Below are positions 25,493-53,407 of a stretch of DNA of 64,000 nt, piece by piece. The notes below the pieces were generated by a model. That model did no database searches. It was not told the origin of the DNA and was given only the letters and a program-made list of their open reading frames with translations. Where the stretch lies: the NCBI GenBank assembly GCA_023259115.1, contig JAHFQW010000003.1, forward strand, positions 46,346 through 110,345, in the 5' to 3' direction. How positions within the stretch are numbered: the first letter of the stretch is position 1; each line of letters starts with the position of its first letter. This stretch comes from an archaeon (GTDB taxonomy: Archaea; Nanobdellota; Nanobdellia; Woesearchaeales; GW2011-AR9). The position numbers were made by a program, and so were the translations under genes.

Positions 25493-25592
25493 ATTGTCAG
25501 AAGTTGTTTGTTAATTTAAATGGTTTGTGGGTCTTGACCCATTCAGTTTAGAGTTATATATCTGAGGAATCCACTAAAGGTTGGCGAAATCT

Positions 25593-25602
25593 TTATAAAT
25601 AC
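25593..25602 (+). promoter_or_regulatory. TATA box (TTTATAAATA) upstream of rpl44e
   Basis: 22-31 nt upstream of the ATG at 25624. Confidence 0.4.
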
Positions 25603-25623: not shown

Positions 25624-25932
25624 ATGAAAATTCCTAAGACAATGAAGAGATATTGTAAGTATTGTAAGAAGCATACGGAGCAAAAAGTTGCTCAAAATAA
25701 AAAGAAAGCAGCAAGTTCATTGAGTTATGGTTCAAAGATTCGCGCACGGTTACGAGGACGGGCACGAGGTGTGGGTAATTTAGGACGTTATTCAAAACCG
25801 GCGGTCACAAAGTTTAAACGAACGGGTGCGAAAAATACGAAAAAAACAGATTTACGTTATACTTGTTCAGTGTGTAAGAAGATGAGTAGTCAACCAGAAG
25901 GAATCCGTGCGAAGCGGGTGGAGTTTGTCTAA
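25624..25932 (+). CDS. rpl44e: Ribosomal protein L44e
   Basis: KIPKTMKRYCKYCKKHTEQK...CSVCKK zinc-ribbon L44e signature. Confidence 0.9.
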   Translation: MKIPKTMKRYCKYCKKHTEQKVAQNKKKAASSLSYGSKIRARLRGRARGVGNLGRYSKPAVTKFKRTGAKNTKKTDLRYTCSVCKKMSSQPEGIRAKRVEFV

Positions 25933-25933
25933 G

Positions 25934-26116
25934 ATGAAAGATAGAACGTTACGAAGCAAATTCATTAAAGTGCGCTGTTCTAAGTGTAAGAATGAGCAGA
26001 TTATTTTTGGTAATGCGAGTACGATTGTACCTTGTTTAGTGTGCAATAAAGAAGTGGCATATCCTACGGGTGGAAAGTCACGCATTTCGGCGCGCGTTCT
26101 TGAGATTTTGGAATAA
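25934..26116 (+). CDS. rps27e: Ribosomal protein S27e
   Basis: FIKVRCSKCKNEQIIFGNASTIVPCLVCNKEVAYPTGGKSRIS zinc-ribbon S27e. Start set to MKDRTL immediately after the L44e stop. Confidence 0.85.
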   Translation: MKDRTLRSKFIKVRCSKCKNEQIIFGNASTIVPCLVCNKEVAYPTGGKSRISARVLEILE

Positions 26117-26179
26117 TTTTTTTTAATTTAGGTTTATTTTAAGAAGAGGTAGTTACTATTTGGTTTTGAGGAGATTTTT

Positions 26180-26322
26180 AAATGAACGGGGCTAATATGA
26201 AACCCTCCCGCTCACTTGCTCCAATCAATGTACATTTGAATGGAGCACCGGGTGTTGTCTGACGAGACACCAGACTAGTTCGCTGGCCCTGTGGCGAGGG
26301 TTTCATATTAGCAAATGAACGG
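26180..26322. mobile_element. MITE-like insertion (family 1) between rps27e and the aIF2-alpha gene
   Basis: 17/18-bp terminal inverted repeats GCTAATATGAAACCCTC (26191-26207) / GAGGGTTTCATATTAGC (26296-26312). Perfect 10-bp direct repeat AAATGAACGG immediately outside both ends (26180-26189 and 26313-26322). Body is 122 bp, GC-richer and structured. Confidence 0.55.
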
Positions 26323-26359
26323 AAAACATTTATAAATGAACCATCGTACGAGAAGTAAT

Positions 26360-27139
26360 ATGCTCTATAAACGAAAAGGATTGCCGGAAGTGGATGAGAT
26401 TGTTCTTTGTAAAGTGAGCAAGATTTTTCCCAACGCGGTTTTTGTTGATTTGTTGGAATATGCGGATTCGGGAATTGTTCATATTTCAGAAGTAAGCCCG
26501 GGACGAATTAGAAATTTACGAGATTATGTTTCGGTGGATAGACAAATTGTATGTAAAGTGTTGCGTATTGATTATACAAATAGACATATTGATTTATCTT
26601 TACGAAGGGTTAATTCTACAGAGAGACAACAGAAGCTTGAGGATATTAAACAGGAGTTGAAAGCGGAGCTGCTAATCAAAAATATTGCAACCAAACTGCA
26701 TTTAGAGATGGAGAAGTTGTATGCGGAGGTTGCACCTAAAATTCTGAAAGAATATCAGTTTATGTACTTAGCGTTTAAAGAAGTGGTGAGTGGGGAGTTA
26801 AATTTAGAGAAGTTAGGAATTGAGAAGAAGGTGGCACAAGAGATATCTGATGCAGTGGTAGATAAGTTTAAGCCGAAAAAGATTATGATTAAGAGTTTAG
26901 TGACATTACAGACGTATGCAACGGATGGGGTTGAGAAGATTAAGAAAGTGCTTGCGGAAATTGAAAAAATTTCTCCCACGGTGCATTTATTATACTTAGG
27001 AGGGGGACGGTTTAAAGTGGATATTGAGGATATTGATTATAAACCAGCAGAGAAGAATTTAAAACGCATTCAAGAGATTCTAGACAAGTTTACGGATAAG
27101 TTATCAATAGCAACATTGGAGAGAGAAGGGACGGAATAG
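26360..27139 (+). CDS. Translation initiation factor 2 alpha subunit
   Basis: S1 domain (LPEVDEIVLCKV...GIVHISEV) followed by the aIF2-alpha core. Start trimmed to MLYKRKG, 24 nt after TTTATAAAT at 26328. Confidence 0.85.
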   Translation: MLYKRKGLPEVDEIVLCKVSKIFPNAVFVDLLEYADSGIVHISEVSPGRIRNLRDYVSVDRQIVCKVLRIDYTNRHIDLSLRRVNSTERQQKLEDIKQELKAELLIKNIATKLHLEMEKLYAEVAPKILKEYQFMYLAFKEVVSGELNLEKLGIEKKVAQEISDAVVDKFKPKKIMIKSLVTLQTYATDGVEKIKKVLAEIEKISPTVHLLYLGGGRFKVDIEDIDYKPAEKNLKRIQEILDKFTDKLSIATLEREGTE

Positions 27140-27146
27140 ATACAAT

Positions 27147-27326
27147 ATGGTTGAACATATTCTACGATGCGCAACGTGTGTTAAATATACGCTAGAAGAG
27201 GTATGTAGTAGTTGTGGAAGTAGGACTATGATTGTGAAGCCTGCTAAGTTTTCTTTAGATGATAAATATGCGACATATCGCAGAACAGTGAAGTTACCCG
27301 AGTGGCAAGCAAGAGGATGGTATTAG
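27147..27326 (+). CDS. nop10: H/ACA RNP protein Nop10 (59 aa; absent from the ORF track)
   Basis: Hand translation: MVEHILRCATCVKYTLEEVCSSCGSRTMIVKPAKFSLDDKYATYRRTVKLPEWQARGWY. CxxC...CxxC zinc ribbon plus the DDKY motif of Nop10, in the expected position after the aIF2-alpha gene. Confidence 0.75.
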   Translation: MVEHILRCATCVKYTLEEVCSSCGSRTMIVKPAKFSLDDKYATYRRTVKLPEWQARGWY

Positions 27327-51652: not shown

Positions 51653-53407
51653 TTGCTGATGGCGTTTGATGAAAAATTACAGAGAGTATATAGGCAGAGA
51701 CGAGAGGAGGCGTGGTTGAAATCTCGTATGATTGAGGGGATACCAAGTTTGCAAGATGATTTTTCTGAAGTGAGACATTGCGTAGTTTCTTCTGAGGAAG
51801 GAATTGAGGCGTTAGTGGGAGATGCGCAAGTTATTTTGATGACGGGAGGATATTTTGGGGATGAAGCGAAAGGAAAATGGGGGAATGCGCTGGCAACAAA
51901 AGTGGACATGGTGGTGCGACCTAATTCGGGAGCAAATACGGGACGAACTATTTGTTACAAAGCAGAGAAGTTGAGTTTACATCTGGTACCAACGGGGTTG
52001 CTTGAAGGGATAAGAGCGATTATTGGATCTGAGACGGTTGGGGATCCGATTAGTTTAGATGAAGAGGAGTTGGCGTTATTTCGAGCGAGGGAAATTGATT
52101 ATAGTTTGCTGGAGGTGGGAAATTTTTTTATTACAACACCGTATCACCGCATTATGGATGTGCTGGGGAGCGCATTGAATGGTTCGACGGGAGTGGGGAT
52201 TATGCCAACGCATAAGTCTATTAAAGGAAAATCGTGTCCCAGACTAGATGATTTGTTTAATAGCTCTACTCATTTACGAAGAGTTCTTTCAAAAGATCAT
52301 GAGAATTATGAAGGCTTTTTGGAGACAAAATTATTGAATCGAGATATGGTAGTTGAGCGTCTTTTAGAAATACAACAACGAAATAGACGAATAGTGCCAG
52401 AGTATGTTTTAGAGTTTGCCAAGTCGCGTGAACCAATTGAATTTTTAAATGAGTTATACGCAGAAAGAGTAGTGAGAAATATACATTTTCCCAAACGGGT
52501 GGATGCGAGTTATGAAGTGAAGAGAGCGCTACAACGAGGAGAGCGGGTGTTATTAGAAGTGACACAGAGTTATCTCTTGAGCAATGCACGGCAACAAGGA
52601 TATCGCTATTCGACATCGGCAGATGTGACGGCGTTAGGGGCGTTGACGTCACTGGGGATTTCTCCGATGCGCTATTCTACGCGGGTGATTAATGTGAATA
52701 AGTTTCCTGGAGCGTCACGAGTGGGACCGGGAGATATTCCAGGTTCTTTTGTGGCACAAAATCATTTTGCGGAGAATAAGATTACGTCACTGAGCGAGTT
52801 AGGAGAGGCTTGTGTTGATTTTAATGCGATTTGTCAGATGTATTTTAGTGCGATTGGGAAGAATGGGATTTTGCAACCGGTTACCTATACAGATGCAACG
52901 GGAACGTATGAAATTGGAGAAGCGATGGCGATTGCCAATGCGCGTACGTTTGATGAGAGAGGAGCAACAACGGGCAAGCCACGGATTACGGGTTTATTTG
53001 ATTGTGTGTTGGGCAGACTCGTGGCAGAGGAACAAGGACCGTATACGGTTATTTCTTGCATGGATAGAGGAAATGTGTGTGACAAAGTGGGATTGGTGGT
53101 AGGGTATGTGGTGTCGTTACCAGAAGAGGTTGAGAGGATTGATTGTAATGGAATGATGTATACAACGGGCAAAGTGATTGTGCCTGGAGATCAAGTACCA
53201 ACAAGTGATGTACTGCAGTATTGTGTGCCAATTATTAAAGTGATGGAAGGTTGGAAGAGCACGCCACTTGGGAATTTGCATCCAGGAGAAGAGCTGCCTT
53301 TGGCAGTTTCTAGTGTTATTGGGGCAATTGAGAAATATACGGGATTTTTGGTTATGGCAATTGGAACGGGACCGGAAACCAATGAGGCGTTGTATTTGAA
53401 GCGGTAA
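51653..53407 (+). CDS. Adenylosuccinate-synthetase-like protein (divergent PurA family, 584 aa)
   Basis: GDEAKGKW (vs GDEGKGK); SGANTGRT in place of GGHNAGHT; NGSTGVGIMPTH (vs IGTTGRGIGPAY); GATTGKPRITGLFD (vs GATTGRRRRTGWLD); IGTGPETNE (vs ISTGPDRTE). Has an N-terminal extension and internal insertions. Confidence 0.55.
   Translation: MLMAFDEKLQRVYRQRREEAWLKSRMIEGIPSLQDDFSEVRHCVVSSEEGIEALVGDAQVILMTGGYFGDEAKGKWGNALATKVDMVVRPNSGANTGRTICYKAEKLSLHLVPTGLLEGIRAIIGSETVGDPISLDEEELALFRAREIDYSLLEVGNFFITTPYHRIMDVLGSALNGSTGVGIMPTHKSIKGKSCPRLDDLFNSSTHLRRVLSKDHENYEGFLETKLLNRDMVVERLLEIQQRNRRIVPEYVLEFAKSREPIEFLNELYAERVVRNIHFPKRVDASYEVKRALQRGERVLLEVTQSYLLSNARQQGYRYSTSADVTALGALTSLGISPMRYSTRVINVNKFPGASRVGPGDIPGSFVAQNHFAENKITSLSELGEACVDFNAICQMYFSAIGKNGILQPVTYTDATGTYEIGEAMAIANARTFDERGATTGKPRITGLFDCVLGRLVAEEQGPYTVISCMDRGNVCDKVGLVVGYVVSLPEEVERIDCNGMMYTTGKVIVPGDQVPTSDVLQYCVPIIKVMEGWKSTPLGNLHPGEELPLAVSSVIGAIEKYTGFLVMAIGTGPETNEALYLKR

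Follow-up and report, generated by a model that had tools for sequence, protein, structure and literature searches.

A probable MITE between the S27e and aIF2-alpha genes of a woesearchaeal archaeon and the IS5-partnered family to which it would belong

In the window (the whole stretch of archaeal DNA analysed here, 64 kb in length) the genes for L44e, S27e, aIF2-alpha and Nop10 stand in a row, and the spacer between the second and the third of them holds a pair of inverted repeats (TIRs), which encloses a strongly folded sequence and is itself flanked by short direct repeats. The locus raises the question of what this sequence is, and of how it came to lie within such a cluster, immediately before the promoter of the aIF2-alpha gene. 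An earlier note, made from the letters of the DNA alone, had described it as a MITE-like transposition footprint, had suggested that with the insertion the downstream genes came to use a promoter of their own, and had remarked on a likeness to the hammerhead core. We conclude, with a probability of about 0.88, that positions 26190-26313 are a non-autonomous MITE (Table 1), one copy of a Woesearchaeota/Nanoarchaeota (DPANN) family that is partnered by an IS5-family element and inserts at the edges of promoters.

Anatomy of the element and its locus

The TIR pair is 18 bp long with 17 of the 18 positions matched, and 17 bp of it are perfect: GCTAATATGAAACCCTC occupies 26191-26207, and 26296-26312 hold its reverse complement without a mismatch. 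No other match to GCTAATATGAAACCCTC was found in the 64 kb with up to 3 mismatches allowed, a search for which the chance expectation is 0.23. From the earlier description of the repeats as 17/18 long the perfect 17-bp core stands, but comparison with the family gives a TIR of 18 bp. Directly outside the TIRs, a pattern search of the window found AAATGAACGG at 26180-26189 and 26313-26322 only. This 10-bp repeat, correctly reported at both ends, is nevertheless too long for the target-site duplication (TSD). The boundaries between element and TSD were set by comparison with 50+ family members, and since the TSD of the family is 9 bp, the tenth repeated base is coincidental. The size of the body also had to be revised, from 122 bp to the 88 bp that separate the TIRs in an element of 124 bp.

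The GC content of the MITE stretch is 50.8%, as compared with 23.8% in the remainder of the spacer, and its predicted fold (-61.6 kcal/mol; z = -6.8 on the plus strand versus shuffles, z = -5.1 on the minus strand) consists of a long terminal stem that closes a three-way junction. Together with the uniqueness of the TIR pair in the window, these values bear out the description of a GC-rich structured body between inverted repeats. The element contains one ORF (42 aa, minus strand), which is unconserved, the bodies being variable, and the motif CUGACGAG at 26259-26266. We could not detect a second MITE copy in the 64-kb window, either with the TIR (up to 3 mismatches), with an nhmmer profile or with blastn using all variants, and tblastn found no transposase gene in the window or in the parts of the contig that were examined.

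Table 1. Positions of the element, its parts and the neighbouring genes in the window
Feature	Position	Strand	Description	Basis
L44e TATA box	25592-25599		TTTATAAA, 32 nt before ATG	sequence reading
L44e gene	25624-25932	+		Pfam PF00935
S27e gene	25934-26116	+	closes the upstream transcription unit	Pfam PF01667, 74.8 bits
T8 run	26117-26124	+	directly after the S27e stop codon; likely archaeal oligo-T terminator	inferred
MITE	26190-26313		124 bp, between the S27e and aIF2-alpha genes
Left TSD copy	26181-26189	.	AATGAACGG, 9 bp	direct reading and pattern search
Left TIR	26190-26207	+	GGCTAATATGAAACCCTC, counterpart of IRL in the parent IS	identical to IRL of 1.02-kb IS copies
MITE body, subfamily A	26208-26295	+	88 bp, no conserved ORF	fold and alignment of 22 subfamily members
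Variable central hairpin (MITE body)	26217-26247			fold; compensatory changes relative to L046
Subfamily motif (MITE body)	26257-26266		GTCTGACGAG	subfamily alignment
CCAG...CTGG hairpin (MITE body)	26270-26286
Mini-hairpin adjoining right TIR	26285-26295		GGCCCTGTGGC	compensatory changes within the subfamily
Right TIR	26296-26313	-	GAGGGTTTCATATTAGCA, 17/18; final base A where the family has C
Right TSD copy	26314-26322	.	AATGAACGG, 9 bp	direct reading and pattern search
aIF2-alpha promoter	26323-26336	+	BRE-like AAAACA 26323-26328; TATA box TTTATAAA 26329-26336
aIF2-alpha gene	26360-27139	+	leaderless; 23 nt separate TATA box and ATG	Pfam PF07541 and PF00575
Nop10 gene	27147-27326	+	7 nt after aIF2-alpha, co-directional	Pfam PF04135

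The Pfam matches agree with the identities that the flanking genes (L44e, S27e, aIF2-alpha and Nop10) had been given from their translations. The start of the aIF2-alpha gene is the ATG at 26360, from which translation gives 259 aa, a product recorded in identical form for ENA contig ERZ27276474:k141_5580508, of which the window is a part. A start at 26336 (267 aa) was considered and set aside, there being no exact-sequence record of that product. By its aIF2-alpha homologues the contig falls in the Woesearchaeota/Nanoarchaeota, a lineage of the DPANN archaea. Oligo-T runs act in archaeal transcription termination. Because such a run (T8) follows S27e and the L44e and aIF2-alpha genes have separate TATA boxes, the L44e-S27e-aIF2-alpha-Nop10 cluster appears, in this lineage, to be divided into two transcription units, both leaderless.

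S27e (60 aa; 25934-26116, L001 2779-2997) is left uncalled in ENA/Logan, where a 72-aa antisense ORF is called instead, and is properly called on the MITE-free sister contig. The GC skew of the plus strand, (G-C)/(G+C), is positive in every 2-kb bin of the window (0.10-0.47 over 1-64000, at ~40% GC), which is unusually strong and may reflect purine loading of mostly plus-strand genes. A scan found no tRNA or tmRNA genes in the 64 kb, and no Rfam family reached its gathering threshold across the window.

The same spacer in related genomes, where the earlier note had proposed to look for an empty site, speaks for an insertion. The L44e and S27e encoded by a contig from another sample (P0001, ENA ERZ27297570) are identical to those of the window, and the aIF2-alpha is 98% identical. 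The S27e-aIF2-alpha spacer of this contig, as measured from gene coordinates only and with other 1-bp indels existing between the two strains, is 110 bp long versus 243 bp in the window, and the gap of 133 bp is what the element and a single TSD copy add up to (124 + 9). The shorter spacer of this near-identical strain is consistent with an empty site, which would read GGAGATTTTTAAATGAACGGAAAACATTTATAAATG with one AATGAACGG. In relatives whose aIF2-alpha is 72% and 69% identical, the spacer is ~90 bp long and lacks the element, and it is missing from the S27e-aIF2-alpha spacer in L003 and L004. The filled site was seen in two further samples (L028; L029/L002). The SRR14366787 assembly splits inside the MITE, with L029 ending and L002 starting there (window equivalents 26219 and 26261), a break that is expected of repeated or polymorphic sequence.

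Since the near-identical strain apparently has an empty site, we infer that the insertion in the window would be recent. Against recent activity of the window variant, however, the nearest other copy among the matches listed (L046) is only 81% identical.

The suggestion that the insertion had given the downstream genes their own promoter did not survive this comparison. The 72% and 69% relatives retain AAACATTTATAAATAA, with the ATG following 22-24 nt on, that is, the promoter AAACATTTATAAAT stands ~22-24 nt before a leaderless ATG in relatives that are free of the element. Because the same motif is found there, the aIF2-alpha promoter is, by its sequence in the relatives, ancestral and not an effect of the insertion. 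Given the target preference of the family (see below), this ancestral promoter probably attracted the element. With BRE, TATA box and start codon intact, and with the MITE positioned downstream of the S27e T8 terminator, the insertion is probably near-neutral for the expression of either unit. The disruption of an operon would thus be merely apparent at this locus, where a harmless MITE appears to lie between a terminator and a promoter that was already there.

Family members and the IS5-family partner

The 19-mer GCTAATATGAAACCCTCSC is found at 23 loci in GTDB species genomes, 22 of which are in Woesearchaeota/Nanoarchaeota-type (DPANN) MAGs, and several MAGs hold 2-4 copies on different contigs. 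The ends of the family read GGCTAATATGAAACCCTC...GAGGGTTTCATATTAGCC, and each copy is surrounded by its own 9-bp direct repeat; in UBA10194, three identical 143-bp copies have three different TSDs. When metagenomes were scanned with the 18-mer TIR, with loci listed up to L150 and family counts hence being a minimum, at least 75 paired elements were found over all loci, of which 41 have TSDs matched at all 9/9 positions, no two sites sharing the same sequence. Short elements of 107-367 bp number at least ~52. Within subfamily A, to which the window copy belongs, the mini-hairpin next to the right TIR covaries, and in the central hairpin L046 is set apart from the window copy by a compensatory change from C:G to G:C. 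The bodies of other MITE subfamilies are unrelated to that of subfamily A.

The elements thus have the traits of a MITE, namely TIRs, TSDs of fixed length and site-variable sequence, small size without a transposase, multiple copies (at the level of the family) and an autonomous partner. The footprint first seen in the S27e/aIF2-alpha spacer is confirmed in this sense as belonging to a multi-copy family with site-specific 9-bp TSDs, whose IS5-family partner shares its TIR. Complete MITE copies are also present in three GTDB MAGs labelled 'uncultured Methanosarcinales archaeon' (L020, L022, L026), for which mislabelling, contamination or transfer are possible explanations. One match in a Cyclobacteriaceae chromosome (L019) is a lone 19-mer and is probably due to chance.

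The partner is represented by at least ~22 elements of 1017-1025 bp that share the family TIRs and contain a single ORF of 305-306 aa. Its product matches Pfam DDE_Tnp_1 (PF01609, 5.4e-13) with an N-terminal DUF772, and no domain beyond these two was seen in the 305-aa transposase. Scores against NCBIfam NF033579 (IS5 family transposase, cutoff 140) were 161.5 and 145 bits, and the transposases are 57-93% identical among themselves.

The left end of the IS is followed by a TATA box and then by a long hairpin, in which the GAGGTGA Shine-Dalgarno region right before the ATG is paired. This 5'UTR hairpin, CGTCGATAAA...TCGACGAGGTGA, sequesters the Shine-Dalgarno-like GAGGTGA in L108 (332-1354), L104 (414-1436) and ~20 other loci. 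The right TIR holds the last four codons of the transposase and its TAG stop (...AGG GTT TCA TAT TAG CC), which explains why the TIR is strongly conserved despite the 57-93% identity of the transposases. A further hairpin adjoins the right TIR inside the coding sequence of the IS (VILIFIRIT), and the mini-hairpin of subfamily A lies at the same place. A derivation of the MITE body from the 5'UTR hairpin of the IS was also considered and is possible, since the two share GTGTTGTCT and GACGAG, but the evidence is too weak to claim it.

Matching 9-bp TSDs flank only 2 of the ~22 full-length IS copies (L032-L149), in contrast to 39 of the 52 short elements, where they are perfect. The scarcity at full-length copies probably results from chimeric joins made where short metagenome contigs were assembled across a repeat of 1 kb; alternatively, it may reflect recombination between copies.

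The nearest annotated relatives of the partner are archaeal IS5-family transposases (plasmid-borne), among the named ones an element of a Methanomethylovorans hollandica plasmid and haloarchaeal IS5-family elements. Like IS5-family IS in general, the partner has a single DDE_Tnp_1 transposase (here ~305 aa), short TIRs and a staggered-cut TSD; it differs from these relatives in its transposase, which is 30-35% identical to theirs, in its own TIR sequence and in its strictly promoter-proximal target. A tblastn search of 72,556 plasmids returned 173 records, in which the named genera were mainly haloarchaeal or methanogen, plus Roseomonas (19 records); no record reached 60% identity and no IS903-like enterobacterial match was obtained at E<=1e-5.

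IS903 is common on enterobacterial plasmids, and its IR of ~18 bp begins with GGCT. Membership of the partner in the IS903 group was examined, and the 9-bp TSD and the length of ~1.05 kb fit, as does a preference for AT-rich flanks beside the target. The transposase similarity and the symmetric target motif, however, do not. As similarity to IS903 was undetected, we file the partner in the IS5 family, outside the IS903 group. The target signal of the present family differs from that of IS903 in being one-sided, in lying 6 nt beyond the TSD and in comprising a complete BRE/TATA module.

Insertion sites relative to promoters

Insertion sites of the family show an association, precise to nearly the base pair, with the upstream edge of the BRE/TATA module. 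In at least 189 unique outward flanks, a TATA-like octamer starts 15, 16 or 17 nt from the element end in 54, 27 and 18 cases, respectively (overlapping regex counts), while every other offset between 0 and 59 gives 0-5. Counted by flank, a TATA box at offset 15-17 is found in 66 of the 189 (35%, flanks from related strains possibly not all being independent) versus 2.6% in the null (p = 3e-55). Among the sites verified by TSDs, 23 of 36 (64%) have the TATA box on one side, versus 5.1% in the null (p = 2e-21), and 0 of 36 have it on both. The null was drawn from the loci themselves, at 51,849 ORF-free positions, and the enrichment at offset 15-17 over such random positions argues that the family targets the upstream promoter edge. 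Surviving insertions are filtered by selection, so that the profile is the product of targeting and selection.

The consensus target, N8-S / RWAANN / TTTATATA, corresponds to the TSD, a hexamer resembling the BRE, the element recognised by TFB, and the TATA box, and the spacing between TSD and TATA box is exactly 6 nt at 19 of 24 sites. At these 24 sites, the ORF-free room on the far side of the TSD has a median of 85 nt (range 0-351). A spacing that is fixed despite free room makes selection alone an insufficient explanation. The window copy conforms to the consensus arrangement (AATGAACGG, aaaaca, TTTATAAA, 23 nt, ATG), with 64 unused nt of spacer upstream of the TSD.

Behind the TATA box, an outward ORF is present in 55 of 65 flanks, its start codon lying most often 30 nt past the start of the TATA box, and this ORF spacing indicates leaderless promoters directed away from the element. 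The end that faces the promoter is IRL in 6 and IRR in 5 members of subfamily A (alignment-based calling), that is, there is no orientation bias.

We propose the following course of events. The DDE transposase of the IS5-family partner would act in trans on the 18-bp ends of the MITE, and the copy in the window, judged by its sequence, would have been mobilised in this way. The 9-bp target would be cut in a staggered manner just upstream of a TATA box and the 6 nt of BRE-like sequence that precede it. BRE, TATA box and start codon would be left intact, and the promoter would fire away from the inserted element.

Rival accounts and known systems

Another account of the sequence in the spacer is that it is a resident structured ncRNA or cis-regulatory RNA of the L44e-S27e-aIF2-alpha-Nop10 cluster, such as an sRNA or, next to Nop10, an RNA related to the H/ACA type. 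Its very stable fold (z = -6.8) and the compensatory changes that preserve helices among family members would suit such an RNA. Conservation of position with covariation across relatives, which the earlier note had regarded as the sign of a functional ncRNA, is nevertheless not what we observe: the spacer is without the element in the 98% (by coordinates), 72% and 69% relatives, the element occupies dozens of unrelated sites with site-specific TSDs, Rfam has no match to it, and the bodies of other subfamilies are unrelated, all of which makes a resident RNA highly improbable. The same absence from relatives and multi-copy occurrence with TSDs led us to drop 5S rRNA, C/D or H/ACA sRNA and a BHB-processed RNA as candidates, and the ideas of a split tRNA or an intron were removed by the empty tRNA/tmRNA scan of the 64 kb. 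A permissive Rfam search of 26050-26450 (E<=10) returned two chance-level matches only (SAM-SAH with 12 bits and an lncRNA fragment). We give next to no credence to a self-cleaving hammerhead-like ribozyme forming the body of a retrozyme-like or MITE-like repeat. CUGACGA does fit the CUGANGA core and the predicted fold has a three-way junction, but GAAA and the helix III/cleavage-site arrangement are absent, no ribozyme model matched at E<=10 in the 401-nt search, and the motif decays to CTTACGA, CTTGCGA or TTTGACA in relatives. What had looked like a hammerhead core is a subfamily-conserved stretch, GTCTKRCGA.

If the element is a MITE, its place at promoter edges could in principle be due to survivorship only, with random insertion and persistence just between terminator and promoter in compact genomes. 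The other side of the site offers 0-2 nt of ORF-free room in 8 of 24 cases, and MITEs are generally intergenic (PMC11602168), as this account would have it. Yet the remaining 16 sites have 28-351 nt of free room and the spacing is still exactly 6 nt at 19 of 24, the observed 64% contrasts with 5.1% over the 51,849 ORF-free positions, and in the window the 64 nt upstream of the TSD were left unused; survivorship by itself is therefore very unlikely. A direct read-out of the target, to which we assign slightly less than an even chance, would have the transposase read S / RWAANN TTTAWATA beside the 9-bp target with no host protein, and selection purge gene-side and intragenic insertions. Such a read-out would extend what is already known of the flanks that IS903 prefers. 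The target flanks of IS903 read WTTYA-N9-TRAAW (PMC2577343, Table 1 therein), and its preference for AT-rich flanks with AA at +3/+4 (PMC2577343) has a parallel here in the A that 18-19 of 23 sites show at +3/+4; the lack of orientation bias, too, is expected of a symmetric transpososome reading a half-site. Less easily accommodated are a signal that is strictly one-sided (both sides, 0/36) and reaches 15-22 bp from the cut versus the 5-bp flanks of IS903, the lack of a clear TT at the mirror positions of the left flank, and a transposase without detectable similarity to IS903 at E<=1e-5 (plasmids).

By analogy with the Ty3 integrase, which uses TFIIIB, the transpososome might instead capture TBP-bent TATA DNA or TFB, an option we hold to be doubtful and clearly behind direct read-out. 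DDE recombinases favour bent DNA as a target. The distance to a full BRE/TATA module is fixed, its polarity is correct (T-T-T-A-T-A-T-A outward), the modules have real leaderless genes behind them, and the signal is one-sided, all of which fits such a capture. However, sequence read-out combined with selection can yield the same pattern, and the 305-aa transposase has no added domain past DUF772 and DDE_Tnp_1. Only tentatively, then, and as an analogy, might the family be the first archaeal transposon to home to promoters via TBP/TFB-bound (bent) BRE/TATA, with a 9-bp target at the upstream BRE edge, which would make it a prokaryotic counterpart of Ty3/TFIIIB with a safe-haven strategy in compact DPANN genomes.

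Ty3 of yeast and TRE5-A of Dictyostelium are retroelements with integrases, for which tethering to RNA polymerase III promoters via TFIIIB has been demonstrated, and TFIIIB consists of TBP plus Brf1, a homologue of TFB. The likeness lies in a fixed distance from a promoter bound by TBP/TFIIB-family proteins, in a gene that is left intact and in a safe haven within a compact genome. In contrast to these retroelements, the present family depends on the DDE transposase of a prokaryotic IS family, for which tethering is a hypothesis. Should the specificity depend on TBP/TFB, promoter-tethered integration, which is known from eukaryotic retroelements, would also have evolved in an archaeal DDE transposon.

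MITEs in archaea are already known (PMC10969869), and the present family resembles the SM-type MITEs of Sulfolobus, those of Halobacterium and Haloquadratum, and the Correia elements of Neisseria in being small (here 107-367 bp), ORF-free, strongly folded, intergenic and trans-mobilised, with TIRs and TSDs (PMC10969869; PMC11602168). It differs from the described prokaryotic MITEs in its fixed distance to the TATA box. In the searchable literature, coverage of which is incomplete, we found neither this family nor TATA- or promoter-directed insertion by an archaeal IS or MITE, and a 2026 survey of archaeal IS elements makes no mention of promoters or target sites. What appears to be new is the family and its behaviour at promoter edges, not the occurrence of MITEs in archaea.

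A MITE census records a Woesearchaea genome with 105 MITEs/Mb (PMC11602168), and insertion at promoter edges explains how many MITEs can be present in a compact genome without gene loss. The insertions mark -38/-46 of real promoters with near base-pair precision and can thus serve as guides when promoters and leaderless starts are annotated in uncultivated Woesearchaeota. We know of no genetic tools for DPANN archaea, and the family offers a testable pair of transposase and ends for this group.

The target duplications themselves have a characteristic composition across the family, with ~62% G/C at positions 1 and 9 and ~77% A/T at positions 2-7 (for example GTTTTCTTC, GAAAAACCC and CATTTTTTG). 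At one locus (L082, 377-541), the flank beyond the TSD is repeated on both sides of the element, as tatatgca-GTTAATCTG-[MITE]-GTTAATCTG-tatatgcagttaatcc, which hints at a duplication of larger extent or at a nested event.
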